Below, in pieces: positions 4,700 through 28,701 of a stretch of 64,000 nt of DNA. The notes beneath the pieces are model-generated. The model did not search any database. It was not told the origin of the DNA and saw only the letters and a program-made list of their open reading frames with translations. Source of the stretch: a virus; the IMG/VR virus record IMGVR_UViG_3300037247_000924; one strand, given 5' to 3'. Position 1 is the stretch's first letter, and each line of letters begins with the position of its first letter. The position numbers and the translations under genes are program-made.

Positions 4700-5217
4700 C
4701 CTACGATAATCATCCGATAATTTCCGGACGTATTTACAATTATTTTTAAAGCATTGTCATTAGGATCAATAAACACCCTCTCCACTAAACCTGATTGGCT
4801 AGCATCAACACACGGAGTAGTGAATATTCCACCATTTAAAGACTGTCGATACCAGATAGTGTACTTAAAATCATATGGGCCAGAAGAATCCTGCCCATTA
4901 CCGTTCAGATAGAACACATTCTTTAATAATCCACCTACTGTCTGATTCAGGCCAGCTGCTGGCGATAACTCGGTTTGAGTAAGGATAGTAGCCGTATGTG
5001 GATTAGAGCTCGATATCGCCGCCCCGTTTATCTGTGGTGGCACAAACTCTGTATTGTATACAATCTTCTCTGCCTGATAGATCTCTTGGCCTCCATCAGC
5101 ACCGGTAGCGCCTGTTGCACCGGTAGCACCCGCAACACCAGGTTCTCCCGCTGGACCCTGAGGCCCCCGAAGACCCGACTTGGGTAATTGGATTGAAGTG
5201 TTTTTACATCCTGACAT
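4696..5217 (-). CDS. Collagen-like (Gly-X-Y) virion protein
   Basis: GLRGPQGPAGEPGVAGATGATGATGADG. Confidence 0.65.
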   Translation of the reverse strand: MSGCKNTSIQLPKSGLRGPQGPAGEPGVAGATGATGATGADGGQEIYQAEKIVYNTEFVPPQINGAAISSSNPHTATILTQTELSPAAGLNQTVGGLLKNVFYLNGNGQDSSGPYDFKYTIWYRQSLNGGIFTTPCVDASQSGLVERVFIDPNDNALKIIVNTSGNYRMIIVG

Positions 5218-9059: not shown

Positions 9060-9320
9060 TTATTCTTTGCTCTTAATTGCGTTTTTGATCTTAGAGATCA
9101 TTTGTTGCTTAAATACTATTATCTGATACATATTCGCCTCATTCTCCGTACCGTTTCCTTGCCTGGCCAATGAGAATATCATTTCCATATTTTCTAAATC
9201 CTTTTCAACGAAACCAAGGCCAGCATCAGACTGGGTATTAACCTCTGTTTTAGATACCTTTTTCTCTTGACCGTTAGCGGTTTGTGTTACTTCTTTTTTT
9301 ACTTCTGCGTCTGTAGACAT
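9060..9320 (-). CDS. Hypothetical protein
   Basis: 86-aa ORF, same strand, normal spacing. Confidence 0.5.
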   Translation of the reverse strand: MSTDAEVKKEVTQTANGQEKKVSKTEVNTQSDAGLGFVEKDLENMEMIFSLARQGNGTENEANMYQIIVFKQQMISKIKNAIKSKE

Positions 9321-9398
9321 TCTATTTTGTTTTTTAGATTCCCTGCAAAGTTACGAAGCATCTTAAAGCAAACTTCATATTTTTTTCAATTCTTTTCA

Positions 9399-11198
9399 TT
9401 ATGATAACATGGTCCAGTTAAACACTATGGTTCCGTCTGCTGTAATAGTATCAGCAGCAGCCCATGTATCTGCTAGATTTAAGTATACCGTTTTAGTATC
9501 TCCAGTAGCATTTAAAGCAATACCGGTATGAATACCTGCATTAGGGAGAACCGGCCCTAAGACTAAAGCAGTTCCACTACAATCCGCTACTGTAGATCCA
9601 TCAGTATAGTCTTCTGATGTGGCACCTTCTGCTCCTAGAGTAGCATTAGCTCCAGTTGCTTCAACAGAACCTAATCCTAATTCTGGCTGATCTGCTGAGT
9701 TACCTCCTGGGCATGTAATTGCTACAGAGTGATAAGTAGCGCTAAAAATATGTGCTCCAGCAGGAAATGTGTAAACAAGTGCTCCAGATGCTTCTGCACC
9801 GGCTCCTGTTATAGCAGGTATTACAAATGAGGCTAGAGTAAGTTCGGTAGTATAATTTCTACCATCACTATGTTCTACTGCGGTTACCGTTGCTGCTCCT
9901 ACTGTTCCTGAATTTAATGAACTTTCATAGGCGCCATCAGTGCTTATTGCAGTTACACTATTAGCAGAGATATTTAAAGCAGCTCCAATGGTAAGGGAAC
10001 TACCATCAATGTCTACTATTGCAGTGGCAGTTTGAACTCCTGAACCATCGATCTTTAAAATATTCGCAGATTCCGTCATTCCTGCTCCACCTCCCGTAAA
10101 TACAACAAGGTCTCCTGTTGTTTGGTTGGTTGCTGTTACTGCAAGAACTCCTGTAGTTCCCACATAAGCGCCGGTACTAACAATATTTACTGCCGCACCT
10201 AGTGTTGAGGCTCCTGCTTGAATATTAAGTACTCCACCGGTAGCGGTAGCATTTGCTCCACCACCTGTTAATTCTGCTACGAATCCGTCTGTTAATCCTG
10301 TTCCGGAAGCTCTAAATAACCCTGTAGAGGTTGTTGCTGCATTAGCAACTAAACTTAGAAGTTCGCCAGTAGTAGTCATTACTCCAGCTGTAGTAAGTAG
10401 CGCTCCCGTTCCTGTGGTAAGGGCTGCCATATCTACACTAAGACCTATTGAGGAAGTAGTGGCTCCTGCCATTACAACCGAAATACCTGTTGCAGCTCCA
10501 GTAGTAACGTCTGGAATAGTGATACTTAAACCTGTTGGGGTAGAAGTAGCATCACCTGCACTAATAAGTTCTAATATTTCTCCGTCATGTGTTATTGTAT
10601 TGGCATTAATCCTCGCCATTGCCCCTGTAGTTATAGACGTGGAGGCAATATCTACTAAGGCGTCTGCGGTAGTAATTGTATTATTAGTAACAGATAGAGA
10701 GGAAGCATTATCTGCGTCCGTTACCGTTATTGATCCGTCTGCTACAATAAAGTCCGTAGCTCCCTGAAGGTCGAATGTCTCTACACCGGCAGCCGAAGAA
10801 GAAACTTGAAATACTTGTCTTATTGTTCCCTGGTCCATAATAGAGAACTGGAACTCAGAGTTTTCTGATCCTGCTGTTACATCAGTAGCAACAACGTCCA
10901 TTCTGGCATATTCCGTAGAAGCTCCAGAATCATTATTAAAGTACCAAGTCATTCTAGCAGTGTCCCCATCTGCTCTTGTAGCAAGATTAGAGGTCAGTCT
11001 TATCATCTCCGTAGGAGAAGCGTTAGAGCTCTTGATTGGAAGAGCTGCTCCTGTAGCAGGGCCAATAATACCGTTTCCGAGAGTAAGATTCTCTATCTGA
11101 AGATCATTAAGATCACCTAGGCGTACAAAGTTGTTACGGTCTACGCCCGGCTTATTGACCTCGGTACCTCTTTTGGTTGTCGCTTTTACAGTTGGCAT
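9399..11198 (-). CDS. Fibre/beta-helix-like virion protein
   Basis: 599 aa, very T/A/G-rich, with about 26-aa quasi-repeats (ATTSTGLF, ATATGGVL, LTTGTGAL). Confidence 0.55.
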   Translation of the reverse strand: MPTVKATTKRGTEVNKPGVDRNNFVRLGDLNDLQIENLTLGNGIIGPATGAALPIKSSNASPTEMIRLTSNLATRADGDTARMTWYFNNDSGASTEYARMDVVATDVTAGSENSEFQFSIMDQGTIRQVFQVSSSAAGVETFDLQGATDFIVADGSITVTDADNASSLSVTNNTITTADALVDIASTSITTGAMARINANTITHDGEILELISAGDATSTPTGLSITIPDVTTGAATGISVVMAGATTSSIGLSVDMAALTTGTGALLTTAGVMTTTGELLSLVANAATTSTGLFRASGTGLTDGFVAELTGGGANATATGGVLNIQAGASTLGAAVNIVSTGAYVGTTGVLAVTATNQTTGDLVVFTGGGAGMTESANILKIDGSGVQTATAIVDIDGSSLTIGAALNISANSVTAISTDGAYESSLNSGTVGAATVTAVEHSDGRNYTTELTLASFVIPAITGAGAEASGALVYTFPAGAHIFSATYHSVAITCPGGNSADQPELGLGSVEATGANATLGAEGATSEDYTDGSTVADCSGTALVLGPVLPNAGIHTGIALNATGDTKTVYLNLADTWAAADTITADGTIVFNWTMLS

Positions 11199-11907: not shown

Positions 11908-12866
11908 TATCTATTCGCTTCTACTTGTGACTTTAAAGTGATATAAACGTCTTGATTATTAATGTCCTTCAAATAATCAATAGTCGTTTCAAGTGTCGTT
12001 CCTAGCAAGTCACCTCCTTGTAGGAGATACTTTGTTCTCTCCTGTCGGATAACCCTTGCCTCTATACAGTCGTCTATAAACAATAGGATTTTATAATCCT
12101 CGTTATCGATAACCTCTAAAAACTTTTCTGGCTGCTCATCAACGATAGTTCCTACAGCAGCCTCGATATAGCTGATTGAGCTGTTTTCTGATATTTTAGT
12201 TTGGCTATTGTTTAATCTATTATAGACTCGCAAGTATCCTCGCATAGTAGCTTGGTGCATAGCTCTGAACTTAGCAAACGCCTGGCCTTTAGCCGAAATA
12301 GTTCTGTTGACTTCACTAGCTTCTTCCTCTTCAGAGCTTATAACATAGTGCGCAAACGCATTCGTTCTCAGTTCTTCCCGTGAACCGGCAACTCGTTGAT
12401 GCGCTAACAATACGTGATATTCAAGCTCCTGTCGTGGGTCGCTTAGGTATAGTGTCTTTCCGCCCTTAGGAATCTCAACTCTAAATGTTGACCAGAAATC
12501 CAGGTTATACTTAGATAGTGTCCCCTGGGGCATTACAGCGCTTCTTCCAGGCAAGTTCAATAGGGCCTCCAAACGAGCCTCTAGCTTAGGAGTAAGTCCA
12601 GTAATCAATTCCCGTGTACCTCTCCTGTTTTGTGGTGTTAGATACTCAGCAGTATTGGTATAACGGTCATGTCCGTCATGTCCAACTTCTAACCAATCAC
12701 TTGTATTGACCTGTCGAATAGTAACTTTATCAGGCAAGTCGTTCCATGGCTCTTCTACCACAGTAGCTGCAGGAGCATCCAAAACTTTAGTTTCAGTACT
12801 AGACTCAGTGCTAAGCTCCTTCATTGGAGCTGGATTTTTCGGTGGATTCTTCTTTCCCTTTGGCAT
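11907..12866 (-). CDS. Conserved crAss-like virion-module protein
   Basis: Directly downstream of MCP; LYLSDPRQELEYHVLLAH motif as in crAss-like head-module genes. Confidence 0.5.
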   Translation of the reverse strand: MPKGKKNPPKNPAPMKELSTESSTETKVLDAPAATVVEEPWNDLPDKVTIRQVNTSDWLEVGHDGHDRYTNTAEYLTPQNRRGTRELITGLTPKLEARLEALLNLPGRSAVMPQGTLSKYNLDFWSTFRVEIPKGGKTLYLSDPRQELEYHVLLAHQRVAGSREELRTNAFAHYVISSEEEEASEVNRTISAKGQAFAKFRAMHQATMRGYLRVYNRLNNSQTKISENSSISYIEAAVGTIVDEQPEKFLEVIDNEDYKILLFIDDCIEARVIRQERTKYLLQGGDLLGTTLETTIDYLKDINNQDVYITLKSQVEANR

Positions 12867-12904
12867 TATCTATCGTTTTTCTGTTAAGTAGCTGATTTTA
12901 AGCT

Positions 12905-18469: not shown

Positions 18470-21400
18470 TTACTGGAACCAGTCTGGTTGTGGACGTTGT
18501 TCTTTCTTTCCAAACGGATCGGACTTAAAAAACGGATCGTCCAGTACTGTTCTTACGTTTTCTTGCTTGATCACTCTCTGTTTCCTTATCTGTGCTAAGT
18601 AATACATTAAAACGAGAAATGACATTACCCTGTCATAGTTCCCATCTTCAGTGTACGCGATCAATTCTTTCAAAAACGGAATTGACCTAATTTTCTGCAA
18701 ATTTAACAATAATTCATCATCTTCTCGTTTTTCTATCAACCAAGTTTTCACCATTTCTTCACCAAACTCCTTTAACCCAGTAGTCATGTGTATTCCTTTT
18801 TTTCTACTTACCTTAGAATCATCAATAACATCTTGGATGATCTCAACAGGTTGATCTAACAATAAATACGTGCAGTTCTGGGAGTCGAAATAGTCAAATA
18901 ATCCCTTCCTTTCATTTTCATAAAGAATCTGGCAATTATAATACAGGAGTAGTTTACGTACATTCTCGTAGTAAATTTTAGAAGTCTCTGGCCTGCCAGA
19001 ATACTCGGCAACAATCTTATGATTCACTCTATCATAGACGAAAGTAGATCCCAGTGATCCGGTACTGGACTTATCATGATCGTATGGATCCGCGCTGGCC
19101 GCGTACATTCCTCTTGGTGGCCTGCCAGACTCATCATGATACGGATGGTTGAAAATAACTATACACCCAGTAGCGTCCTGCCCAGCTCTCATTGGGAAAT
19201 CGATAATTGGTACCAGGTCCGTATTCTCCTTCCAGACAATATCGCCTAAATTATCCGTAACTAAGTCTCCAATAAAATCTGCATTCCTAATCCTCTCGTT
19301 CGATTCCAAATACCCCAGGTGTTGTTTTAGCTCAGCAACGGCAAAGATCATTCCCTCTGTTCGCAAGACAGCCTCGGAAGGACTGAATGGCTTTTCTGCC
19401 ACGTATCGAACCACTGCATTCCGATCCTTAGCATTATCAGCTATCAGCTTACGCTCCTTCATTTCACGCTCTATTGCAGCCTCGATATTAGAGTTCCCAT
19501 TCTCATCATAGTAGCCCTCCATATTTAGGTATTCAGGTCCGAAGTATCCACACTCCGTATCTCCTTTCCCGTCATCCCAGATGTTAGGAGTATGGTGGAT
19601 ATTATAGGCTTTGGGGTAATAGAACAGTTCTTCTAGTCCATCAAAGTTGCTTCCTTCAGTTCCGCCTGTATTATGGGTAATAATTCCATTGGCAATATAT
19701 GTGCTTGTCGTACCGGCTGTTAAATTATAAATATCCCTCATTCCAATCTCCTCAACACTAATTACTCTCTCTAATCTCAGCCCATGCACATTAGCAGATA
19801 TCCCCTCTTTCTTATCTCTATACATCTCCTTAAATGTATTTAGTCTTCTTTGTTTTTCTGCTGGAAATAATTTAATATTCTTCACGAATGCTAAAACGCT
19901 TCTTTTGTCAGCAATTTCAAATCTAAAATGGTCGTTTTTGTCTTTAGGATTTTTTTCACTCTTTTTTATCCTCTGAATAGCTCCATGAACACCTATTCTC
20001 TGAAGTAAAAATCTTATTTCATCTAATAAGGTAAAGGACATAGAGGTTATGCTTATCCTACCTCTTTTCTTTTCAACATATCCATCCGTGTCGAAAAGAC
20101 CACCCAGTAATTCACAAATACTTTTTTTTGAGTAAGAATGGATATTCCTAGGAAGAGTTTTTGATAGTTTAGTTTGACCATATATTCCTACCGCTCTTAA
20201 TTTAGGGCAGATTCCTCTAATTCGTGTCTCTCTGTAAATCTTGCCTGTTTTTGTTATGTACTGCTTCTCAATAACGGTGTCGTAATTGGAATCAATAGCA
20301 GTGTTTATCTCGCCTTCACAATTAGAAAGGATGGGGGTCTTATTAATCCCATAGCTACCATCTCCAATTAACCATCCCAAAAGCCTCGCATCAGGTAATT
20401 CCTTACGCCTGGATATGGGCACAACATCAATCACTGCTATTTGATCACTAGCCTTAATATTCTTAGCCTCAACAAACTCTGTTTTTTTTATGAATGGTCT
20501 ACGAATATTACCTTTTGGTTTTCTAGGCTGAGAACCATGCCAGAGTTTACTCCATAATATTGGATGATCTTCACTGCACTCCAGCACTCTTCCGGTATGG
20601 GTGGTTATTCGATAGCAAAGCTTTTTAGCTGGCGGGTTCCAGTGAGTTACTTCCTCTTTTGATATCCTGCCTTCTTCTTTATTATACCCCAATATTCCCT
20701 GCCGCGGCTTAAGGTCTTCTATTTTCACTAAGTCTCCTCTATTATTCCAGACCTTTGTTCCAGCACAAACACATCCGAATGCAACTTGTAATCCGAACGT
20801 AATTGGACCCTGCTCCATCGAACTTCTAGTAATTCCCCAGGCCGTTAATAGTTTCGGGAAAAGACCAGCCTCCTCGAACAGAATCAGTTTCCCACGTTTT
20901 CCTCTCGATCTATTTGGGTTATCTTTTAGGGAGACTCCTATAATTTCAGACTTATAGCCCTTCTCTATACTTTGGCCATCTTCTAGCTCTGTAAAACTAG
21001 CCTTTCTGCGCATCTCCTTGTTAGTAGAGCTTCTTTTTGTCCAGGCGGTATGTTCGTTTATAAAATCTATATTATCCCACGCCTTTGTCAATAATCCATC
21101 TGAGGTTAGGTGCTCTTTCTCAAATGCCATAGCATAAGACTTGGATCCTCGAATAAGAAAATAATTACGACACAGCATATTGGCTCCTTTGTACGAAAAT
21201 CCGCGCCCACGCGCCTTAAGAACCACTCCATGCTTCCCATTTTTTTCAGCATCTTCTAGGTAATTAAAATACTTATAATCCCCGTCCCATACTTTAGGGA
21301 ACAACATAGGCCTATCGCCCTGGACCCTTTCATCTTCCTTTATATCCTCTATTGCTTCTACAACAGGGATCTGGCAATAATTCAAATAAAAGTAGTAGTA

Positions 21401-21574
21401 TCCAGATATCTTATCAAATCCCAAATCATAGCCTTCTATAGATCTTCTTTTCTCCTCTTCCCAAAACTTCATATACCCACTGGAGGGTAAATCATTAAAG
21501 GGATGTTTAGTATAGACTCCATGCTCCTCGAAATGAGCAGCAGCCGGTCTAAATTCTTGTACCCTTTCTAGCAT
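18470..21574 (-). CDS. terL: Terminase large subunit containing an intein
   Basis: Walker A LKARGRGFSY, Walker B LILFEEAG, AFG|intein|TGG, nuclease domain SADPYDHD and NYDRVMS. Confidence 0.93.
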   Translation of the reverse strand: MLERVQEFRPAAAHFEEHGVYTKHPFNDLPSSGYMKFWEEEKRRSIEGYDLGFDKISGYYYFYLNYCQIPVVEAIEDIKEDERVQGDRPMLFPKVWDGDYKYFNYLEDAEKNGKHGVVLKARGRGFSYKGANMLCRNYFLIRGSKSYAMAFEKEHLTSDGLLTKAWDNIDFINEHTAWTKRSSTNKEMRRKASFTELEDGQSIEKGYKSEIIGVSLKDNPNRSRGKRGKLILFEEAGLFPKLLTAWGITRSSMEQGPITFGLQVAFGCVCAGTKVWNNRGDLVKIEDLKPRQGILGYNKEEGRISKEEVTHWNPPAKKLCYRITTHTGRVLECSEDHPILWSKLWHGSQPRKPKGNIRRPFIKKTEFVEAKNIKASDQIAVIDVVPISRRKELPDARLLGWLIGDGSYGINKTPILSNCEGEINTAIDSNYDTVIEKQYITKTGKIYRETRIRGICPKLRAVGIYGQTKLSKTLPRNIHSYSKKSICELLGGLFDTDGYVEKKRGRISITSMSFTLLDEIRFLLQRIGVHGAIQRIKKSEKNPKDKNDHFRFEIADKRSVLAFVKNIKLFPAEKQRRLNTFKEMYRDKKEGISANVHGLRLERVISVEEIGMRDIYNLTAGTTSTYIANGIITHNTGGTEGSNFDGLEELFYYPKAYNIHHTPNIWDDGKGDTECGYFGPEYLNMEGYYDENGNSNIEAAIEREMKERKLIADNAKDRNAVVRYVAEKPFSPSEAVLRTEGMIFAVAELKQHLGYLESNERIRNADFIGDLVTDNLGDIVWKENTDLVPIIDFPMRAGQDATGCIVIFNHPYHDESGRPPRGMYAASADPYDHDKSSTGSLGSTFVYDRVNHKIVAEYSGRPETSKIYYENVRKLLLYYNCQILYENERKGLFDYFDSQNCTYLLLDQPVEIIQDVIDDSKVSRKKGIHMTTGLKEFGEEMVKTWLIEKREDDELLLNLQKIRSIPFLKELIAYTEDGNYDRVMSFLVLMYYLAQIRKQRVIKQENVRTVLDDPFFKSDPFGKKEQRPQPDWFQ
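19670..20773 (-). mobile_element. Intein with LAGLIDADG homing endonuclease (368 aa)
   Basis: Starts CVCAGTKV, ends YIANGIITHN followed by T; blocks LLGWLIGDGS and LLGGLFDTDG. Confidence 0.92.
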
Positions 21575-21580
21575 AGTACT

Positions 21581-22108
21581 TTAGCTTTCAAATGCCCCGG
21601 CGCTTCCTCCGCCACGAATTCTGGTGTCACTCTGTAGTTCTTTTTTTACCTTCTCATGTAGGCTCTCAAGACTATCCATAATACCACTTGCGTCCTTTAG
21701 TCCTGATGTGACCTCTTTTAGCTTATATAAGGGCTTGCCGTTATCGGGATCATAGTTGACATTACTAAAGTAGTCAGTTGTAGCCTCAAGAGCCTCAATA
21801 GCGCTTTCCAGGAACCTCAACGCTGGGGTTGACTGCAGTATCCTGTACTTTTCTACTCCTGCCCTTAAAACAACACTAATCTGCCGTATGTCGAAATCTT
21901 TCCTTAACGTATCCTCTCGCTCTTCAATAAGATAGGATTGATATACGGAAGAATAGTCACACAGAAAATAGATGTATGATAAGTATTTAATAGCAAGTTC
22001 CTTTTTTGGAGAGGTATCATGTTTCCAAATGGCGGCAAATTCCGGTATTGAAAGTGCTGCAGGATTTATTGTGAGTTCCTTGTTACTGTCTAAGCTTAAT
22101 AGATTCAT
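21581..22108 (-). CDS. Conserved crAss-like protein upstream of TerL (possible TerS)
   Basis: F..IW..D.S..KE.A...L.YIYF..DY.S.Y motif and position. Confidence 0.5.
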   Translation of the reverse strand: MNLLSLDSNKELTINPAALSIPEFAAIWKHDTSPKKELAIKYLSYIYFLCDYSSVYQSYLIEEREDTLRKDFDIRQISVVLRAGVEKYRILQSTPALRFLESAIEALEATTDYFSNVNYDPDNGKPLYKLKEVTSGLKDASGIMDSLESLHEKVKKELQSDTRIRGGGSAGAFES

Positions 22109-22296
22109 GTACTGCTGATTACTTGGGGAGCATCGGGGACCCCGGTTATGGTCGAGCTTTCCTCTGAATAGGTAATGTCAAAACTGGGTTCATCTTCGCC
22201 TATATAAGATATTAGATAGCGTATCCTTGACTCAAGAATCCTTACTGTAGTGTAAAATTCCTCTTTTGTTACGTATTCGGTTTTTTTCTTGGTCAT
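22105..22296 (-). CDS. Hypothetical protein
   Basis: 63 aa; stop overlaps the next start codon. Confidence 0.45.
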   Translation of the reverse strand: MTKKKTEYVTKEEFYTTVRILESRIRYLISYIGEDEPSFDITYSEESSTITGVPDAPQVISST

Positions 22297-22297
22297 A

Positions 22298-22501
22298 CTA
22301 CTTCCATCTCTTTAATTCACAAATCACTTTAGGGGCCCTAGTTTTCATTGGTATCGGGCAATTACACTCCTTACAGATATTATACCAGTTAGAAGGGCAT
22401 GGAGCACACATGACAGCCCTTGATTTCGCCATCTGCTCTACCTTGGGATTCTTCCAAATTACGTTCTTCCAGCCGTCGTAGATGTCTTGTAACTTACCCA
22501 T
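22298..22501 (-). CDS. Small Cys-rich (Zn-binding) protein
   Basis: R..MC..CP.....CKECNC...KTR....C...RW. Confidence 0.6.
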   Translation of the reverse strand: MGKLQDIYDGWKNVIWKNPKVEQMAKSRAVMCAPCPSNWYNICKECNCPIPMKTRAPKVICELKRWK

Positions 22502-22578
22502 TTAACGACAATATAGAAATTGTGTTACTGTAAAATTAGGAATAGTGCGGGGGTAAACCTAAGAAAATACGGATTAAG

Positions 22579-22653
22579 TGGTTGCCCAACGTGGATTCGA
22601 ACCACGATTCACTCCTTCAAAGGGAGGTGTCCTGCCAGTTAGACGAAAGGGCA
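22579..22653 (-). tRNA. tRNA-Gln(UUG)
   Basis: Cloverleaf; loop CT-TTG-AA; encoded CCA. Confidence 0.92.
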
Positions 22654-22659
22654 ATATTG

Positions 22660-22733
22660 CTGCGAGTCTGAGACTCGAACTCAGGATCTTCTGCTTAACA
22701 GGCAGCTGCTGTAACCAACTCAGCTAACTCGCA
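22660..22733 (-). tRNA. tRNA-Asn(GUU)
   Basis: Cloverleaf; loop CT-GTT-AA. Confidence 0.92.
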
Positions 22734-22738
22734 TTTTG

Positions 22739-22808
22739 CACAGGAAGCAGGAGTTGAACCCACAAGTCACGAGTTTGGAATCCGCTTAGTACACCAATAC
22801 GTTCCTGC
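22739..22808 (-). tRNA. tRNA-Trp(CCA), short D arm
   Basis: Acceptor GCAGGAA/TTCCTGT; loop TT-CCA-AA; T-loop TTCAACT; weak anticodon stem. Confidence 0.75.
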
Positions 22809-22814
22809 GTATAG

Positions 22815-22888
22815 CGGTACGGGCTGGACTCGAACCAGCGGCCAGCAGATCTTCAATCTACCACTCTACGCAACTGAGTTACCGTACC
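22815..22888 (-). tRNA. tRNA-Phe(GAA)
   Basis: Cloverleaf; loop TT-GAA-GA. Confidence 0.9.
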
Positions 22889-22894
22889 TTATTG

Positions 22895-22968
22895 AGACCA
22901 GAACAGGGTTCGAACCTGCGTAAAGGGTTTTGCAGACCCCCACCTATAACCATCTCAGACATCTGGCC
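22895..22968 (-). tRNA. tRNA-Cys(GCA)
   Basis: Cloverleaf; loop CT-GCA-AA; U73. Confidence 0.92.
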
Positions 22969-22973
22969 TTGTG

Positions 22974-23047
22974 CGGTACCGATGGGATTTGAACCCACGA
23001 TCTCCTCCGTGACAGGGAGGCAACATACACCAACATGATGCGGCACC
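22974..23047 (-). tRNA. tRNA-Asp(GUC)
   Basis: Cloverleaf; CCTCC CT-GTC-AC GGAGG; G73. Confidence 0.9.
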
Positions 23048-23051
23048 ATAT

Positions 23052-23081
23052 AAAAAAAGCCCTTCGCTATTAACAAAGGGC
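23052..23081 (-). terminator. Attenuator terminator C (upstream of Asp-Cys-Phe-Trp-Asn-Gln)
   Basis: GCCCTTTG-TTAATAG-CGAAGGGC-TTTTTTT, ending 4 nt before tRNA-Asp. Confidence 0.88.
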
Positions 23082-23107
23082 CTCGACTATTCTTTAAAGT
23101 TAGCGCA

Positions 23108-23173
23108 TTAGCCCCCTGTATCTTGATTAAAATCAAAATCACAGTTAAACCAATTTTGCTGTACTCTTCTCAT
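23108..23173 (-). CDS. Leader peptide C, MRRVQQNWFNCDFDFNQDTGG
   Basis: ATG AGA AGA GTA CAG CAA AAT TGG TTT AAC TGT GAT TTT GAT TTT AAT CAA GAT ACA GGG GGC TAA; codons 5-18 use only the six amino acids of the downstream tRNAs. Confidence 0.9.
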   Translation of the reverse strand: MRRVQQNWFNCDFDFNQDTGG

Positions 23174-23183
23174 AATTTCTTAG

Positions 23184-23256
23184 TATCCCAGACCAGATTC
23201 GAACTGGCGACTTTACCTTGAAAGGGTAACGGCTTGACCAACTTGCCCACAGGGAC
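23184..23256 (-). tRNA. tRNA-Glu(UUC)
   Basis: Cloverleaf; TTACC CT-TTC-AA GGTAA. Confidence 0.9.
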
Positions 23257-23293
23257 AAGTCTCCTCAGCTTCAATATCTACCGTTGCTTTCAT
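23213..23293 (-). CDS. Putative leaderless peptide MKATVDIEAEET... reading into tRNA-Glu
   Basis: ATG 4 nt after TATATTTG; GAA GCT GAG GAG just before the tRNA 5' end; stop inside the anticodon arm. Confidence 0.45.
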   Translation of the reverse strand: MKATVDIEAEETCPCGQVGQAVTLSR

Positions 23294-23297
23294 CTTG

Positions 23298-23305
23298 CAA
23301 ATATA
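23298..23305 (-). promoter_or_regulatory. -7 promoter element TATATTTG (tRNA-Glu and operon C)
   Basis: Exact TAnnTTTG match. Confidence 0.75.
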
Positions 23306-23325
23306 CAATTCTTTTTTTAATAACG

Positions 23326-23399
23326 TGATTCCGGTGAGAGTCGAACTCACAACCCTCTGCTTAGAAGGCAGATGCTCTATCCAGTTGAGCTACGGAACC
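23326..23399 (-). tRNA. tRNA-Arg(UCU)
   Basis: TCTGC CT-TCT-AA GCAGA. Confidence 0.92.
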
Positions 23400-23402
23400 A
23401 TG

Positions 23403-23475
23403 TTCCCCTGGTGGGCCTCGAACCCACTACTTTCCCGTTAAAAGCGGGAAGCCCGTCCACATGAGCTTCAGAGGA
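23403..23475 (-). tRNA. tRNA-Lys(UUU)
   Basis: TCCCG CT-TTT-AA CGGGA. Confidence 0.9.
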
Positions 23476-23537
23476 ATATATAGGAATACCAGGACGTTAT
23501 CTACGCCTGATCACCTGTTTATATTTCCTCTTACTTC

Positions 23538-24215
23538 TCATGCTAATGTTTTTGTTCTTATGTAATCAATTCCTCCATAAACGTTTTGTACTAATTCGGT
23601 TGAGCACACATATAGAGTTCCTGTTCCATACGGGAGCTTTCCAATTCCTTTTCTCTGAGTATCCCTTCTTATTTTATTCTTTGAGCATAACAGTGTCCAT
23701 TTTTTGTTTTTAAGCTTCGGAAACTCTTTGATCCATCGTCTCCTTATTTGGTATTCCGACAACCCGTTTTCTCCATAATAACATACCCGTATTTTGCATG
23801 ATTTATTTTTTACATTCTCATCAACCCACTCCCCCACCACCTTAATCATCGGCAAGTCTGAGTTGGCGAAAGAAAATATATTCCTACCCTTGGAGCCCTC
23901 ACCCCAATAAAGAGCGCATATCAACCTAAAAGGCTCATCTGTTTTTGCCCTCTCAAAACCATTCTTTCTGTAGCCTAATCTTCTCTCTTGTGCTTTTGTT
24001 TTATTGATTCTAGACTGCACTAGGAGCTTATCTATACCTGCATTTAAGCGGTTATTTTCTAAAGTTCGCTTATGATCTTCTGTTAACTTTACATCCCGAA
24101 CCCATAAACTAACCGAGCTTTTTGACACTCTAAGTTTTTTAGCGATCTTAAACAGGCTTAATCCCAATCCACGAAGCCGCCTAGCCTCTTTTTGCTCATT
24201 TTCTTTTTTCTTCAT
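23538..24215 (-). CDS. HTH plus LAGLIDADG-like putative homing endonuclease inside the tRNA array
   Basis: N-terminal HTH (GLSLFKIAKKLRVSKSSVSLWVR); ALYWGEGSK, FANSD and YGTGTL motifs; between tRNA-Val and tRNA-Lys. Confidence 0.6.
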   Translation of the reverse strand: MKKKENEQKEARRLRGLGLSLFKIAKKLRVSKSSVSLWVRDVKLTEDHKRTLENNRLNAGIDKLLVQSRINKTKAQERRLGYRKNGFERAKTDEPFRLICALYWGEGSKGRNIFSFANSDLPMIKVVGEWVDENVKNKSCKIRVCYYGENGLSEYQIRRRWIKEFPKLKNKKWTLLCSKNKIRRDTQRKGIGKLPYGTGTLYVCSTELVQNVYGGIDYIRTKTLA

Positions 24216-24244
24216 CCGAACCTCTGTCTTATTAATATATAAGA

Positions 24245-24252
24245 CAAAGATA
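24245..24252 (-). promoter_or_regulatory. -7 promoter element TATCTTTG for the endonuclease-like gene
   Basis: TAnnTTTG immediately 3' of tRNA-Val. Confidence 0.6.
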
Positions 24253-24263
24253 CTAATTATTAT

Positions 24264-24340
24264 TGGTACTTGCTAAGAGATTCGAACTCCTGACCCTCTC
24301 GGTGTAAACGAGACGCTCTTAACCGCTGAGCTAAGCAAGC
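24264..24340 (-). tRNA. tRNA-Val(UAC)
   Basis: TCTCG TT-TAC-AC CGAGA; encoded CCA. Confidence 0.93.
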
Positions 24341-24346
24341 ATGTAG

Positions 24347-24422
24347 TGGATCTGAACGGACTTGAACCGATAACCTTCTGAGTGCAAAACAGACGCTCTA
24401 GCCAAATTGGAGCTACAAACCC
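24347..24422 (-). tRNA. tRNA-Ala(UGC)
   Basis: Loop TT-TGC-AC; G3:U70 identity pair. Confidence 0.92.
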
Positions 24423-24426
24423 ATTT

Positions 24427-24514
24427 TAATCATGCCTCCCTGTGGAGTATCTGCACAGGACTATGCCCGCTCACCACCCCGATGGATTTCACATTCTTCA
24501 GGGAGACATGATTA
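24427..24514 (-). ncRNA. Structured RNA of unknown function between tRNA-Ile2 and tRNA-Ala
   Basis: 16-bp closing stem TAATCATGTCTCCCTG / CAGGGAGGCATGATTA enclosing two small hairpins. Confidence 0.5.
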
Positions 24515-24520
24515 TCATAG

Positions 24521-24594
24521 TTGACCCTAAAGGAATTGAACCTTTAACCTTCCGGTTATGAGCCGGGCGCTCTGACCAATTGAGCTAAGGGTCA
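24521..24594 (-). tRNA. tRNA-Ile2(CAU), lysidine-type (elongator Met not excluded)
   Basis: CCCGG CT-CAT-AA CCGGA; acceptor TGACCCT resembles Ile2. Confidence 0.75.
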
Positions 24595-24597
24595 CTG

Positions 24598-24671
24598 AGC
24601 GAATAGTCGGGATCGAACCGACTCTATTTCTGCTTGGAAGGCAGACGCACCACCGTTTATGCGTTACTCGC
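24598..24671 (-). tRNA. tRNA-Gly(UCC)
   Basis: TCTGC CT-TCC-AA GCAGA; U73. Confidence 0.92.
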
Positions 24672-24677
24672 TTATTG

Positions 24678-24750
24678 TTGGCAAAATTGGATTTGAACCA
24701 ATGACCCCCGCCTTATCAGGACGGTGCTCTCACCGCTGAGCTATTCGCCA
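24678..24750 (-). tRNA. tRNA-Ile(GAU)
   Basis: CCGTC CT-GAT-AA GGCGG. Confidence 0.92.
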
Positions 24751-24755
24751 ATATG

Positions 24756-24829
24756 TAGCGGGACACGGATTCGAACCGTGGACCTGTAGGTTATGAGCCT
24801 ACCGAGCTGACCAACTGCTCCATCCCGCT
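24756..24829 (-). tRNA. tRNA-Met(CAU), initiator-like
   Basis: AGCGGGATGGAGCAG 5' end resembles fMet; loop CT-CAT-AA; 1:72 is paired (A-U). Confidence 0.85.
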
Positions 24830-24837
24830 ATATATTG

Positions 24838-24911
24838 AGCCGCATACAGGATTCGAACCTGTGACCGGTTGATTACAAATCAACAGCTCTGACCATCTGA
24901 GCTAACGCGGC
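24838..24911 (-). tRNA. tRNA-Thr(UGU)
   Basis: GTTGA TT-TGT-AA TCAAC. Confidence 0.92.
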
Positions 24912-24914
24912 ATT

Positions 24915-24946
24915 AAAAAACCCCAAGCAATTTCTCACTTGGGGTT
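24915..24946 (-). terminator. Attenuator terminator B (upstream of the Thr...Val/Lys/Arg block)
   Basis: CCCCAAG-TGAGAAATTG-CTTGGGG-TTTTTT, ending 3 nt before tRNA-Thr. Confidence 0.88.
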
Positions 24947-24967
24947 CCAGTATCGTAAATTGCTTCG

Positions 24968-25054
24968 TTAGGTTATACATACACCGGTGCCCCCTTGTGA
25001 CTTAATCACCGTGGCAGCCATTCTCGCTATCGTATTTCTCCTTATTGAAGTCAT
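24968..25054 (-). CDS. Leader peptide B, MTSIRRNTIARMAATVIKSQGGTGVCIT
   Basis: 28 codons, 23 of which encode T/M/I/G/A/V/K/R; Arg codons are all AGR; Ile is ATA x3 and ATT x1. Confidence 0.85.
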   Translation of the reverse strand: MTSIRRNTIARMAATVIKSQGGTGVCIT

Positions 25055-25073
25055 TTTGTTTTTATTAACAGTA

Positions 25074-25081
25074 CAAACGTA
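25074..25081 (-). promoter_or_regulatory. -7 promoter element TACGTTTG (operon B)
   Basis: TAnnTTTG followed by an A-rich 5' UTR and the leader ATG. Confidence 0.75.
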
Positions 25082-25114
25082 CAACCCTTGGATTTAATAT
25101 CCTAATTTATTTTG

Positions 25115-25187
25115 GGTGACACCGGGACTCGAACCCTGTTCTCCAGATTCACAGTCTGGCACTTTACGCATATAAGCTAGTGACACC
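25115..25187 (-). tRNA. tRNA-His(GUG)
   Basis: CCAGA CT-GTG-AA TCTGG; C73; acceptor/T-stem register ambiguous by 1 nt. Confidence 0.88.
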
Positions 25188-25193
25188 ATATAG

Positions 25194-25265
25194 TACCCCC
25201 GGCACGATTCGAACGCGCATTCCCTGGTCCGAAGCCAGGAGCTCTATCCGTTGAACTACGGAGGC
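25194..25265 (-). tRNA. tRNA-Arg(UCG)
   Basis: CCTGG CT-TCG-GA CCAGG. Confidence 0.9.
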
Positions 25266-25270
25266 ATTTG

Positions 25271-25355
25271 TACCGAGAGCGGGCCTCGAACCCGCAAGAT
25301 CGCAATGACCGTCAGGGCTTAAACCTGATGCGTTTACCTATTTCACCACCTCGGC
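25271..25355 (-). tRNA. tRNA-Leu(UAA)
   Basis: TCAGG TT-TAA-GC CCTGA; long variable arm. Confidence 0.92.
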
Positions 25356-25359
25356 ATAG

Positions 25360-25434
25360 TACCGGTGAAGGGAATCGAACCCCCAGAACTCCTGATCCTA
25401 AGTCAGGCGACTTTACCATTTTGCCCACACCGGC
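25360..25434 (-). tRNA. tRNA-Leu(UAG), short variable region
   Basis: CCTGA CT-TAG-GA TCAGG; variable region about 6 nt; 75 nt total. Confidence 0.85.
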
Positions 25435-25439
25435 ATTCG

Positions 25440-25509
25440 TGGGGTACCAGGATTCGAACCTTGGCGGTTAGGGGTTACAACCCTTCCGGCACAACCTACG
25501 CTGCACCCC
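25440..25509 (-). tRNA. Atypical tRNA-Tyr(GUA), 70 nt
   Basis: Acceptor GGGGTGC/GTACCCC; loop TT-GTA-AC; T-loop TTCGAAT; reduced D arm; no long variable arm. Confidence 0.6.
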
Positions 25510-25515
25510 ATCTAG

Positions 25516-25597
25516 CGGAAAACAGAGGCCACGATCCCCAATCCTTTCAGATCCACCTCTTTAGCAAAGAGAGCCTACCCAGGTAGGTTTATCTTCC
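25516..25597 (-). tRNA. tRNA-Ser(GCU)
   Basis: TCTCT TT-GCT-AA AGAGG; long variable arm; G73; non-canonical T-loop ATCGTGG. Confidence 0.85.
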
Positions 25598-25602
25598 GTA
25601 TG

Positions 25603-25691
25603 CGGAAAGCGGAGGACCCGACCCCCAGACAACTTAATGCCTTCTAGTTTTCAAGACTAGCCGCAGCTCCATTGCCACTGCTTCACCTTCC
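25603..25691 (-). tRNA. tRNA-Ser(UGA)
   Basis: CTAGT CT-TGA-AA ACTAG; long variable arm; G73; non-canonical T-loop. Confidence 0.85.
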
Positions 25692-25696
25692 GTTTG

Positions 25697-25769
25697 TCTG
25701 AGTGGAGAGACTTGAACTCCCGTCCTGAGCATCCCAAATGCCCCGCGCTACCAACTGTGCCACACCCAG
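25697..25769 (-). tRNA. tRNA-Pro(UGG)
   Basis: GGGCA TT-TGG-GA TGCTC; C1:G72. Confidence 0.92.
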
Positions 25770-25781
25770 ATATTATTCCAC

Positions 25782-25813
25782 AAAAAAAGCCCCGGAGGTT
25801 ATCCGAGGCTTTT
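25782..25813 (-). terminator. Attenuator terminator A (upstream of the Pro...His block)
   Basis: GCCTCGGA-TAACC-TCCGGGGC-TTTTTTT, ending 12 nt before tRNA-Pro. Confidence 0.9.
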
Positions 25814-25832
25814 CCTATATATGTCGTGAATC

Positions 25833-25901
25833 TTACATAGGCGTATCCCCCGGACTTGCGTTCGGCAGCGAATAGCGACTATGTAAGAGTTGTTGAATCA
25901 C
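25833..25901 (-). CDS. Leader peptide A, (M)IQQLLHSRYSLPNASPGDTPM
   Basis: GTG ATT CAA CAA CTC TTA CAT AGT CGC TAT TCG CTG CCG AAC GCA AGT CCG GGG GAT ACG CCT ATG TAA; GTG 4 nt after the -7 box (leaderless). Confidence 0.85.
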   Translation of the reverse strand: MIQQLLHSRYSLPNASPGDTPM

Positions 25902-25905
25902 GATG

Positions 25906-25913
25906 CAAATATA
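25906..25913 (-). promoter_or_regulatory. -7 promoter element TATATTTG (operon A)
   Basis: Exact TAnnTTTG match. Confidence 0.78.
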
Positions 25914-25927
25914 CTACTCTTTTTCGA

Positions 25928-26251
25928 TTATTTTAAAAACGCCTCTCTTTTTATTTTATCATAATCTACTCCCTTACAAATTTGTTTAGTCAAAAACCTA
26001 CAATAATCCGGATTAACTTTTTGTCTGTATCCAAGTAAATGCATAGAATTAGCTTTTCCCTTTAGTTTATGAGATTTAACCTTATAAAAAATCCCCCAAT
26101 AATCTTTTATTCTCTTTTTAAGCTTTCTGGATATTCTAGGATTCTCTCTAAGACAGTGTTTTGTTTTAGGTTCCGTAAAATGTTTTTCTAACTCTTCATA
26201 TAGAATAGCCTTCATTCTTCTTTGCCTAGCTCCTGTCTGGATTAATTGCAC
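25928..26251 (-). CDS. Hypothetical basic protein
   Basis: 107-aa ORF; start uncertain. Confidence 0.45.
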   Translation of the reverse strand: MQLIQTGARQRRMKAILYEELEKHFTEPKTKHCLRENPRISRKLKKRIKDYWGIFYKVKSHKLKGKANSMHLLGYRQKVNPDYCRFLTKQICKGVDYDKIKREAFLK

Positions 26252-26379
26252 AACTCGTACAGTCTTTACCTGAATGATGATCTACTGGACAGGGCCTATC
26301 TGTCAAGAGATCGCATTGCCTCTTACCGTCTTCCCAATAATAATGAAACATCCCTGATAATTCGGTTTCTGGCATCTTC

Positions 26380-26745
26380 TTAAAGTGTTTCAAAATAGAA
26401 TTTTACTTTAACTCCTGTTTCTTTGATAAGTCCGTAATCTTTTGCCATTCGATATGCACTTGAATCCCTCTGGAGCCGTTCACATTGTTTCTGAAGCTCT
26501 TCCCTGAATTTCTCAATGGTAAAAGTGTCCTTCCACCTATTGCATCTAGGGCAGCTAGGATTTGAGTTTTCTAAAGTATCAGCACCCTTTTTTAACTTAT
26601 ACTTTTCACATTCCTCTAGTGTCATGTTGTGCCAATGAGCTTCGATATGGTCTACATGCCAACCCTTCTGTAATTCACAACCACAGTAGGCGCACTTACC
26701 TCCGTACTTATCAAATATAAACTTTCTATCGCTTGCTTTACTCAT
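26380..26745 (-). CDS. HNH endonuclease
   Basis: CAYCG...WHVDHI...NPSCPRCNRWK. Confidence 0.88.
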   Translation of the reverse strand: MSKASDRKFIFDKYGGKCAYCGCELQKGWHVDHIEAHWHNMTLEECEKYKLKKGADTLENSNPSCPRCNRWKDTFTIEKFREELQKQCERLQRDSSAYRMAKDYGLIKETGVKVKFYFETL

Positions 26746-26790
26746 CCTCTAAGGTTGCTTTTTTGAGCGTATTATCCATATCTAACTCTT

Positions 26791-26994
26791 CTAATTTCTC
26801 TTTTTGATCGAATGATCATTGGCTAAAAGTCGTTTATATGCTTCTATACCCGCCTCTGTAAGTTCGTATTTCCCTTTAACCTCCCTGAACCATTCCGCAT
26901 TTATATTTGAACCAGAACCAATAAGAATACACTTAGTAGGCTTTCCTTTATCCCACCAACTAGCGTTCTTGAGTTTTTTAATATCGTAGTTCAT
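26791..26994 (-). CDS. Hypothetical protein
   Basis: 67-aa ORF. Confidence 0.4.
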   Translation of the reverse strand: MNYDIKKLKNASWWDKGKPTKCILIGSGSNINAEWFREVKGKYELTEAGIEAYKRLLANDHSIKKRN

Positions 26995-27069
26995 TATATT
27001 CTAATTACTAATTTGATAATTATTAGTAATGGTTAGTAATACGCCACAACCGTCATTAGTTTATACTCA

Positions 27070-27549
27070 CTATTTACCATGCTCCTCATCATGGCACTTC
27101 TCACAAAGAGTTATCATATCCTTTCCTTTCGCTTCCCATATATAACTATTCTTTCGATACTTAAGATGGTGAACATGCAGCATACTGTCTTTATCACCAC
27201 ACCTCCTGCAAGTAAATTTGTCTCTCTCTAGTATCTGTAGCCTTCTCCGCTGCCAATTCGGGTGCCTGTACTGCTCTTTCCATGTTAAGGGCTCCGCTAC
27301 AGGTATAAATCTAACCTTTTTGTTTTTAAACTTACTTCTTTTCTTTCTACACGGCTTCCCGGTTAAATGTTTATTCCTTAGGTCCAAAAACTCCTGCATA
27401 GCGTTCTCGGTATACTCCTTTCCGATCAATTGCTTTTTCCATCCTTTAGGAGTAAACTTAAAAACGCCTAACGCCCTGAATTGAGCATTAGACCATCCGC
27501 CATGACGACTCTTTGCGGCATCCATAATATCCTGGGTCATCACTACCAT
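27070..27549 (-). CDS. HNH endonuclease with extra N-terminal domain
   Basis: WQRRRLQILERDKFTCRRCG...LHVHH...TLCEKCHDEEH; N-terminal GGWSNAQ...PKGWKK. Confidence 0.85.
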   Translation of the reverse strand: MVVMTQDIMDAAKSRHGGWSNAQFRALGVFKFTPKGWKKQLIGKEYTENAMQEFLDLRNKHLTGKPCRKKRSKFKNKKVRFIPVAEPLTWKEQYRHPNWQRRRLQILERDKFTCRRCGDKDSMLHVHHLKYRKNSYIWEAKGKDMITLCEKCHDEEHGK

Positions 27550-27796
27550 ACCAACTCTTTCTCTGAAATCCCTTATTCAGCAGTTTAAAACCTGTTTAGT
27601 TCTACTATAATCTAATCATTTACTCCTAATCCTCTGTACGATTAGTGGAATAGGTCGTCGAATTTTCAGCTTAACCGTCCTCAGTTGTCGAGGTATTCCC
27701 AGGAAGGTTCCCACCTTTCCCTTCTTCAATCTTAGATAACCCTTTTGTTTCTACCTTCTTGCGGTACTTCGGTTGGGTTGTAAGAACCGATATTAG

Positions 27797-27875
27797 TGGA
27801 GAGTGAAGGACTCGAACCTCCGACCTGCTGTCTTAACCGTGCGCACCGCTGCTCTACCAACTGAGCTAACTCCCC
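27797..27875 (-). tRNA. tRNA-Ala-like RNA with 13-nt anticodon loop
   Basis: Acceptor GGGGAGT/ACTCTCC-A (G3:U70), canonical D and T arms, anticodon arm GCGGT-GCGCACGGTTAAG-ACAGC. Confidence 0.7.
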
Positions 27876-28075
27876 ATATGATAACCTGTTAATCCCTTAC
27901 AGAAGGATTAAAGTACAAAGGGTCGGCATAACTTTCAGCCTCCTTCCACCCTCGCGTGTACCTCTCCTATCAACTGCTGTAAAACTTATCTCAATACTGC
28001 TTTTTAAGAGCATCTATTAATATATTGAATCAAAGAGCAGGTTATCAATATTTAAAGAACAATGAGAAAGTATCG

Positions 28076-28126
28076 GACAAAAAGAATCCCGATGCAAACT
28101 AGAGCCAGCACATCGGGAAATTCTTT
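28076..28126. terminator. Long hairpin, bidirectional terminator-like
   Basis: AAAGAATCCCGATG...CATCGGGAAATTCTTT flanked by A and T tracts. Confidence 0.65.
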
Positions 28127-28246
28127 CACGGTATCAGGGGTATCCCTTCTACGTTATAATGTCATTCGAGAATTAGCTGGCTTAATAGTTATTTTCTCTG
28201 ACTACAAAGTAAAGCATTATATATTTAACATACAAGGGTAAATTAC

Positions 28247-28272
28247 AAAACCCCCTGAATAATCAGAGGGCT
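28247..28272 (-). terminator. Intrinsic terminator
   Basis: GCCCTCTGA-TTAT-TCAGGGGGT-TTTG. Confidence 0.7.
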
Positions 28273-28338
28273 TGCACAAATTTAACATTAGAGCTACTTC
28301 TTGCAGCACCCATCTACGGGTAATCAAATATACTGAAT

Positions 28339-28701
28339 TTAAAGCGGATCCAGCGGGTCACCAAAGATCTTTATACACTTTTCTGCCTCAGTCTTCTCTT
28401 CTGCTTGATCTGCTAGTTGATCTTTAAACATCTCCCTAGTGATTTGTTTCCGATCAGCCCAGGCTACTCTCCTACGCTGAGACAAGCAGAAGCTACCAAA
28501 TCCAGGAATCCACACAAGCCTCTTTTCTATAGCCATTTGACTAGCAGTAAAGTTGAGTGTCTTCCTAATTATGGACCGAACCACAGTCACGGAGAGCCCC
28601 TGTTCTGCGGCGATCTTACTCACAATCTTTTCAAGTCCTGGTTCAAAAGGTTCAGGTCGGGACCTTGTTACAGGGAAGTGATTGACTACAAGCTTAGCCA
28701 T
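28339..28701 (-). CDS. HU/IHF-like DNA-binding protein
   Basis: IVSKIAAEQGLS...VWIPGFGSFCL, HU family pattern. Confidence 0.75.
   Translation of the reverse strand: MAKLVVNHFPVTRSRPEPFEPGLEKIVSKIAAEQGLSVTVVRSIIRKTLNFTASQMAIEKRLVWIPGFGSFCLSQRRRVAWADRKQITREMFKDQLADQAEEKTEAEKCIKIFGDPLDPL

Follow-up and report, generated by a model that had tools for sequence, protein, structure and literature searches.

The window analysed here, a 64-kb stretch of phage DNA, carries on its minus strand an array of 24 tRNAs (25769..22579, called with ARAGORN and Rfam) that contains three units, each made of a leader ORF and a terminator. The array runs in the order unit A, unit B, a gene for a protein of 225 amino acids, tRNA-Lys, tRNA-Arg(UCU), a TATATTTG box, tRNA-Glu and unit C. 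All 20 amino acids are covered only if a Tyr-like and a Trp-like gene are counted. Ser-GCU, Tyr-GUA and Trp-CCA stay below threshold by default; ARAGORN calls them at an 85% threshold, and their anticodon loops are proper ones. Unit C and its surroundings consist of the following features.

23298..23305, minus strand: promoter-like box TATATTTG, matching the Bacteroidota -7 consensus TAnnTTTG (pattern match only)
23183..23256, minus strand: tRNA-Glu(UUC), found by ARAGORN and Rfam, upstream of leader C and behind no terminator
23105..23173, minus strand: leader ORF C, MRRVQQNWFNCDFDFNQDTGG plus TAA, 21 codons and then the TAA at 23107..23105
23120..23161, minus strand: sensor run, 14 codons (leader C codons 5-18) for Q, N, W, F, C and D only
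23056..23084, minus strand: intrinsic terminator hairpin C, 13 pairs and a 3-nt loop, the 5' arm (23082..23073) being region 3
23052..23058, minus strand: U-tract of 7 T, ending about 5 nt before tRNA-Asp
22973..23047, minus strand: tRNA-Asp(GUC), ARAGORN and Rfam
22894..22968, minus strand: tRNA-Cys(GCA), ARAGORN and Rfam
22814..22888, minus strand: tRNA-Phe(GAA), ARAGORN and Rfam
22738..22808, minus strand: tRNA-Trp(CCA)-like gene, non-canonical, ARAGORN at the 85% threshold only, weak Rfam match
22659..22733, minus strand: tRNA-Asn(GUU), ARAGORN and Rfam
22579..22653, minus strand: tRNA-Gln(UUG), last of block C, ARAGORN and Rfam

The preliminary description of this DNA had named six tRNA genes downstream of leader C. 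Asp, Cys, Phe, Asn and Gln are supported by both ARAGORN and Rfam, and the Trp gene only below threshold. Its best Rfam match, of 20.6 bits, is to the related tRNA-Sec model, its D stem has 3 bp and its anticodon stem contains an A.C mismatch.

Leader C starts 10 nt after tRNA-Glu; unit C is reached via this tRNA rather than directly from a promoter. The octamer of the TATATTTG box is also found 5' of leader A (25906..25913), and TACGTTTG lies 5' of leader B (25074..25081). From the sequence, the box at 23298..23305 is likely the promoter from which tRNA-Glu and leader C are transcribed. The TAnnTTTG pattern shows no enrichment in the window (44 matches vs 60 expected), and the promoter calls are consensus matches only. 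Glu codons are missing from leaders A, B and C. Between terminator C and tRNA-Asp, a distance of about 5 nt, there is neither a promoter consensus nor room for a promoter. Since the terminator is followed by no promoter, the six tRNAs of block C can be transcribed only by read-through. At the other end of the block, no terminator-like hairpin was seen on the minus strand at 22502-22578, between tRNA-Gln and the same-strand genes for a 67-aa protein, a 175-aa protein, the terminase and the portal, so that read-through of attenuator C could extend into the packaging module.

We compared unit C with what a ribosome-mediated attenuator demands: a short ORF with a usable start, a cluster of regulatory codons within it, a terminator between leader and cargo, an antiterminator that depends on ribosome position, and a 1:2 hairpin that gives termination without translation. 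Leader C begins at the ATG at 23173, and an in-frame TAA three codons 5' of this ATG defines the limits of the ORF exactly. As far as sequence features go, the start is usable; translation is inferred. The region 5' of the leader is A-rich and lacks a Shine-Dalgarno motif, as do most genes of the phage, in which a motif of this kind precedes only 5 of 45 long ORFs and upstream regions are A-rich. The terminator stands between leader and cargo as a 13-bp hairpin followed by 7 U (23084..23052).

The preliminary description had placed the leader at 23173..23108, with codons 5-18 consisting of Q, N, F and D three times each together with one W and one C. Both the sequence and the coordinates are correct, and the run is found at 23161..23120 in the order Q Q N W F N C D F D F N Q D. 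None of these 14 consecutive codons falls outside the six amino acids of the cargo, codons 5-12 already suffice for all six amino acids, and every sensor codon is readable by some tRNA of block C. Measured against the phage's own amino-acid usage, in which the set has a frequency of 0.217, the probability of such a run is 5e-10 per position. Across the six frames of the window, no other Q/N/W/F/C/D run equals it, the runner-up being 8 codons long. Two further arguments from codon choice were discarded. NNU wobble codons are preferred in the run (9/10), though not significantly vs the phage usage of about 63%. ATA cannot be regarded as a rare codon, as it makes up 37% of the Ile codons in long ORFs of the phage, and the ATA in leader B is therefore not rare.

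The RNA of unit C can fold in mutually exclusive ways, in which two further segments of the leader take part.

23147..23154, minus strand: region 1, AUUGGUUU, which in the ribosome-free fold pairs with GGGCUAAU (23114..23107)
23110..23119, minus strand: region 2, ACAGGGGGCU, the 5' strand of the antiterminator, formed by the Thr-Gly-Gly codons

It had been suggested that 8 bp could form between CAGGGGGC (23118..23111) and the terminator 5' arm GCCCTTTG (23081..23074), in competition with CGAAGGGC (23066..23059). The pairing exists and is longer than suggested, comprising 10 bp between ACAGGGGGCU (23119..23110) and GGCCCUUUGU (23082..23073) and an inner stem. Computed folding gives -15.8 kcal/mol for this antiterminator and -16.7 for the terminator. 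To model the ribosome, all RNA was hidden up to a point 14 nt beyond the A-site codon's first base, and only the RNA made before the terminator's 3' arm exists was folded. Under these conditions, the antiterminator is intact with A-site codons 2-14, falls to -11.1 at codon 15 and to -6.0 at codon 16, and is gone from codon 17 through the stop. Stalls at codons 5-14, which span all six amino acids, leave it formed. This agrees with the earlier proposal that a ribosome stalled in codons 5-14 frees region 2 and that one at the stop covers it. Codons 15-18 are not sensors in this simple model because a ribosome stalled there would mask the antiterminator. For codons 2-4 (AGA AGA GTA), the decoding tRNAs are those of block B, and stalls there would consequently induce block C as well.

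Without a ribosome, the minimum free energy fold of the whole leader (-38.8 kcal/mol) pairs region 1 (23154..23147) with region 2 (23114..23107), and the terminator is formed. The 1:2 hairpin and the position-dependent antiterminator are thus both present in silico, the latter in silico only. The antiterminator energy is only modestly better than that of mononucleotide shuffles of the part upstream, 43 of 2000 shuffles matching it (p about 0.02). As modelled, the folds of unit C follow the classical 1:2, 2:3 and 3:4 logic of an attenuator.

The other two units of the array share this layout.

25779..25901, minus strand: sister unit A, leader MIQQLLHSRYSLPNASPGDTPM and terminator, ahead of block A
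24917..25054, minus strand: sister unit B, leader MTSIRRNTIARMAATVIKSQGGTGVCIT and terminator, ahead of block B

Block A consists of Pro, Ser(UGA), Ser(GCU)-like, Tyr-like, Leu, Leu, Arg(UCG) and His, and block B of Thr, Met, Ile, Gly, Met, a 97-nt gap bearing a hairpin, Ala and Val; Lys and Arg(UCU) of block B sit beyond the inserted 225-aa gene. In both units, the antiterminator survives a stall within the matched run and is lost toward the stop. The antiterminator energy was matched by 2 of 2000 shuffles for unit A and by 5 of 2000 for unit B. Leaders A, B and C each end in a G-run that pairs with a C-run of the terminator 5' arm.

Some other elements of the array region were noted. The 97-nt gap between tRNA-Met and tRNA-Ala (24423-24519, minus strand) contains a hairpin, ATCATGTCTCCCTG ... 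CAGGGAGGCATGAT, of about 14 bp around ~45 nt; no tRNA was called in it even at a 75% ARAGORN threshold, and there was no Rfam match. The 225-aa gene (23538-24215, minus strand) has no Pfam match and has a 38%-identical homologue in a region of scattered tRNAs of a 259-kb IMG/VR phage (L016, 10001-10660). It fits a mobile, homing-endonuclease-like insertion among the tRNA genes, which split Lys and Arg(UCU) from block B. An isolated tRNA-like gene is located 2 kb upstream of the array (27796-27875, minus strand); Rfam scores it as a tRNA with 49.9 bits, and ARAGORN reports it as 'tRNA-???' with an oversized anticodon loop.

The design recurs in other phages. A search for a pattern of three adjacent tRNAs yielded about 120 IMG/VR loci. 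In a simple scan, we recorded the longest run of block amino acids within 220 nt 5' of each tRNA block; p<=1e-3 was reached in 5 of 287 blocks, compared with 0 on the reverse complement and 0.5 with permuted amino-acid sets. A strict scan demanded a terminator <=60 nt from the first tRNA and a short ORF ending nearby, and assigned a binomial p. Here, p<=0.01 was obtained for 9 of 27 terminator-plus-ORF units vs 0.86 with permuted sets. Units B and C of the phage studied are among these nine, and the remaining seven come from other phages. In all nine, the terminator 5' arm is paired upstream with the A site in the early or middle part of the leader and freed near the stop, and the spacing from stop to terminator is 21-28 nt. 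Examples of leaders from the IMG/VR scan, with the tRNAs that they precede, are:

AAAEFAAAAFEAF (...FEHEFFAAERAAAEFAAAAFEAF...), preceding Glu-Ala-Phe-Ala
MTYVMNTNNTNPNNNP..., preceding Asn-Asn-Pro-Pro-Pro-Thr-Tyr
...SKQIEDIKISDYREDI..., preceding Lys-Tyr-Asp-Glu-Ile-Ser-Gln-Arg
...TTTVRTRVNGRG..., preceding Gly-Thr-Arg-Arg-Ala-Val
...TNTVNINVITITNCVNNTT..., preceding Asn-Asn-Val-Val-Cys-Cys-Thr-Thr

The coupling of leader and cargo is illustrated by two homologous attenuators, L054 (86-400) and L076 (reverse strand, oriented 1088-1418), which have the same TTGACA promoter, ORF start, ORF end GGGGTATGTCTTGA and terminator. The middle codons read SIIGWPS in L054, where the cargo is Trp-Pro-Gly-Ser-Met-Ile, and PIYWYPI in L076, where it is Trp-Ile-Tyr-Pro; the middle of the leader differs in step with the tRNAs. 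A jumbo phage of 424 kb (L115, IMGVR_UViG_3300037455_000543) has at least three codon-matched leader-terminator units in a 13-kb stretch, at 4030-4970, 9120-9620 and 12000-12880. The leader NTNNTNPNNNP has the cargo Asn Asn Pro Pro Pro Thr Tyr, AAAEFAAAAFEAF the cargo Glu Ala Phe Ala, and a leader rich in D, K and G the cargo Asp Asp Lys Gly Lys. In a cultured phage, Caulobacter phage phiCbK (L163, JX100813), the design is reproduced in part. At 4340-4710, an ORF containing QFVRQIQVVRNI and ending in MSKTYRQFVRQIQVVRNIRAGRSRMADEGFRD is followed by an annotated rho-independent terminator and the tRNAs Phe-Val-Ile-Ile-Val-Gln-Gln. The annotated 45-aa gp083 of the same phage, rich in S, L, P and K, and a terminator precede Pro Pro Lys Lys Leu Leu Leu Ser Ser.

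The phage itself is crAss-like, its portal protein being 33% identical to portals of crAss-like phages. The 1034-aa ORF adjoining the portal gene (18470-21574, minus strand) is probably the large terminase and carries an intein (Pfam Intein_splicing and LAGLIDADG_3). The scarce Shine-Dalgarno motifs, the A-rich upstream regions and the TAnnTTTG boxes fit a Bacteroidota host. The sole sequencing run containing the DNA is a marine sediment metagenome, probably the source sample, and no RNA run containing the sequence was found among the sequencing runs searched. Portal homologues of 77-52% identity, inspected with 10-kb flanks, have no tRNA array, nor do homologues of the array-adjacent 175-aa gene in IMG/VR and JGI metagenomes, and a complete 95-kb relative has zero tRNA genes. 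From these comparisons, the array is inferred to be a recent acquisition by the phage. As the relatives lack it, leader C has no support from conservation or covariation. The back-translated leader C peptide had no IMG/VR match, the Asp-Cys-Phe anticodon-loop order pattern gave 5 matches, all noise without tRNAs, and blastn against GenBank phages returned generic tRNA matches only.

We propose that the six-tRNA block is the cargo of a ribosome-mediated leader-peptide transcription attenuator, unit C, a reading that we hold with considerable confidence. It rests on sequence anatomy, on statistics, on mutually exclusive folds that depend on ribosome position, and on recurrence. Translation of the leader, its coupling to transcription, the choice between termination and read-through, and the trigger, for which loss of host tRNAs (through breakdown or defence nucleases), a mismatch in codon usage and the charging state of the host all come into question, are inferred, there being no expression or ribosome data. 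It is also not established which polymerase transcribes the array, that of the host or a crAss-type one, and whether it obeys hairpin terminators. On balance, unit C is a real and very probably functional leader-peptide attenuator with tRNA cargo.

According to this proposal, the transcript would begin at the promoter 5' of tRNA-Glu and enter the 21-codon leader C, which would be translated by a ribosome close behind the RNA polymerase. When charged Gln, Asn, Trp, Phe, Cys and Asp tRNAs are plentiful, the ribosome would reach the stop and cover region 2 (ACAGGGGGCU), the hairpin would form and transcription would stop before tRNA-Asp. If any of the six charged tRNAs is scarce, the ribosome would stall in codons 5-14 and region 2 would pair with the terminator 5' arm. 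Once this antiterminator has formed, the polymerase would read through into exactly the six tRNAs whose codons were tested. If leader C is not translated at all, region 1 would sequester region 2, making termination the default. The net effect would be a phage tRNA supply on demand that is self-limiting, as the product relieves the limitation. That attenuators respond to tRNA gene dosage is known from a pheR mutant, in which one tRNA-Phe gene is missing and pheA is de-repressed 6- to 7-fold (PMC3082878).

The nature of the signal can also be viewed differently. A stalled ribosome is blind to the difference between a missing and an uncharged tRNA, and classical attenuators answer starvation. 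The same switch could therefore respond to amino-acid starvation or to a general slowing of translation, tying tRNA transcription to the charging or growth state of the host instead of making up for lost tRNAs. Against this, extra tRNA would bring no relief from amino-acid starvation, and the one-for-one match of cargo and sensor can be understood only if the stall is relieved by the product. The Arg codons are moreover split by isoacceptor, with CGC in leader A, whose block holds Arg-UCG, and AGG, AGA and AGA in leader B, whose block holds Arg-UCU. Leader A also has AGT and TCG, which fit Ser-GCU and Ser-UGA. Matching at the isoacceptor level is suggestive only: across the units, block tRNAs can read 11 of 12 Leu/Ser/Arg codons vs 8.9 expected, too few to decide the matter. 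We consider it unlikely that starvation or slowed translation is the signal.

It is also conceivable that the leader is translated and acts after transcription, with ribosome position governing how the polycistronic tRNA precursor is processed or how stable it is (via RNase access), or with the peptide itself working in trans. RNase P/Z sites flank the leader, which follows tRNA-Glu and whose terminator precedes tRNA-Asp at the short distances given above, and trans-acting leader peptides have a precedent in peTrpL (PMC7298713). The combination of a hairpin, a 7-U tract and a position-dependent antiterminator is, on the other hand, exactly what termination control needs, and the peptides are conserved neither between units nor between phages, only their composition tracking the cargo. 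We regard a post-transcriptional role as very unlikely. That terminator C merely ends the tRNA-Glu unit, with an untranslated or irrelevant ORF whose codon match is a coincidence or a relic, is hardly credible: direct evidence for translation of leader C is lacking, its antiterminator only modestly surpasses shuffles and the promoter is assigned by consensus match alone, but the run is too improbable per position and unique in the window, the design is common to three units and recurs in unrelated phages with controls included, and six tRNA genes needed for the 20-amino-acid set would be left promoterless.

Taken as a leader-peptide attenuator, unit C resembles the trpL, hisL, pheL and leuL leaders of enterobacteria, which combine a short translated ORF and its regulatory codons with 1:2, 2:3 and 3:4 structures and a U-tract. 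In these leaders of amino-acid operons, a stall on hungry codons leads to read-through, and a ribosome at the stop leads to termination. Unit C shares the short ORF with regulatory codons and the three alternative structures. It differs from amino-acid operon leaders in that its cargo is tRNA genes rather than biosynthetic enzymes and that six amino acids are sensed together, and from the enterobacterial ones in being phage-borne, with a Bacteroidota-type promoter and no Shine-Dalgarno motif. Nor is there sequence homology to a curated leader family: no Rfam leader family, those for Trp, His, Leu and Thr included, had a match at E<=1 within 22000..28500.

Leaders that respond to several amino acids are familiar, the ilvGMEDA leader mixing Ile, Val and Leu codons and the thr leader Thr and Ile codons, in each case for two or three amino acids that are metabolically linked. 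Unit C is similar in placing codons for several amino acids in one leader, so that shortage of any induces. In contrast to these leaders, there is no metabolic logic behind Q, N, W, F, C and D; only the downstream tRNAs define the set. The pheM-pheST system and T-box RNAs, which control aminoacyl-tRNA synthetase genes, like unit C regulate a component of the charged-tRNA supply by that supply itself. However, pheM-pheST controls a synthetase and not a tRNA, and T-box RNAs need no ribosome, binding uncharged tRNA themselves. A permissive cmscan with Rfam gave no match to a T-box riboswitch, and unit C does not qualify as one. A possible precedent among tRNA genes, a Phe-rich leader and attenuator ahead of E. 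coli pheU and pheV, was rejected, as MG1655 shows a plain promoter directly upstream and neither leader nor terminator. A full-text literature search did not find leader-peptide attenuation of tRNA genes described, in phages or in bacteria. In its proposed form, unit C joins the classical logic of attenuation to a cargo that is new and to a sensor of extreme multivalency.

To our knowledge, the control of phage tRNA gene expression is essentially unknown. Their purpose has been under debate for 50 years; they have been proposed to serve codon compensation, to replace a host pool that decays or to allow escape from tRNA-cutting defence (PMC10264068, PMC11464382). We suggest, tentatively and as a possibility that we do not favor over its negation, that phage tRNA arrays act as decoding sensors, with a test peptide spelled in its own codons gating each block, so that depletion or cutting of host tRNAs, for example by anticodon-nuclease defence or breakdown of host RNA, would be perceived through the codons that have slowed and answered with exactly the matching tRNAs. 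Such arrays may then form a widespread, convergent circuit for counter-defence and homeostasis in many unrelated phages.

If the attenuator reading is true, the phage gauges decoding capacity codon by codon and delivers tRNAs on demand, and leader-peptide attenuation is extended to RNA genes as cargo and to an extreme multivalent form. It would offer a compact, programmable sensor for the supply of specific tRNAs. It would also provide a rule for annotation, in which the leader predicts the cargo; in this array, the rule supports three tRNA genes missed by standard tools. Finally, the competing hypotheses for phage tRNAs would become testable through which perturbation opens the switch.
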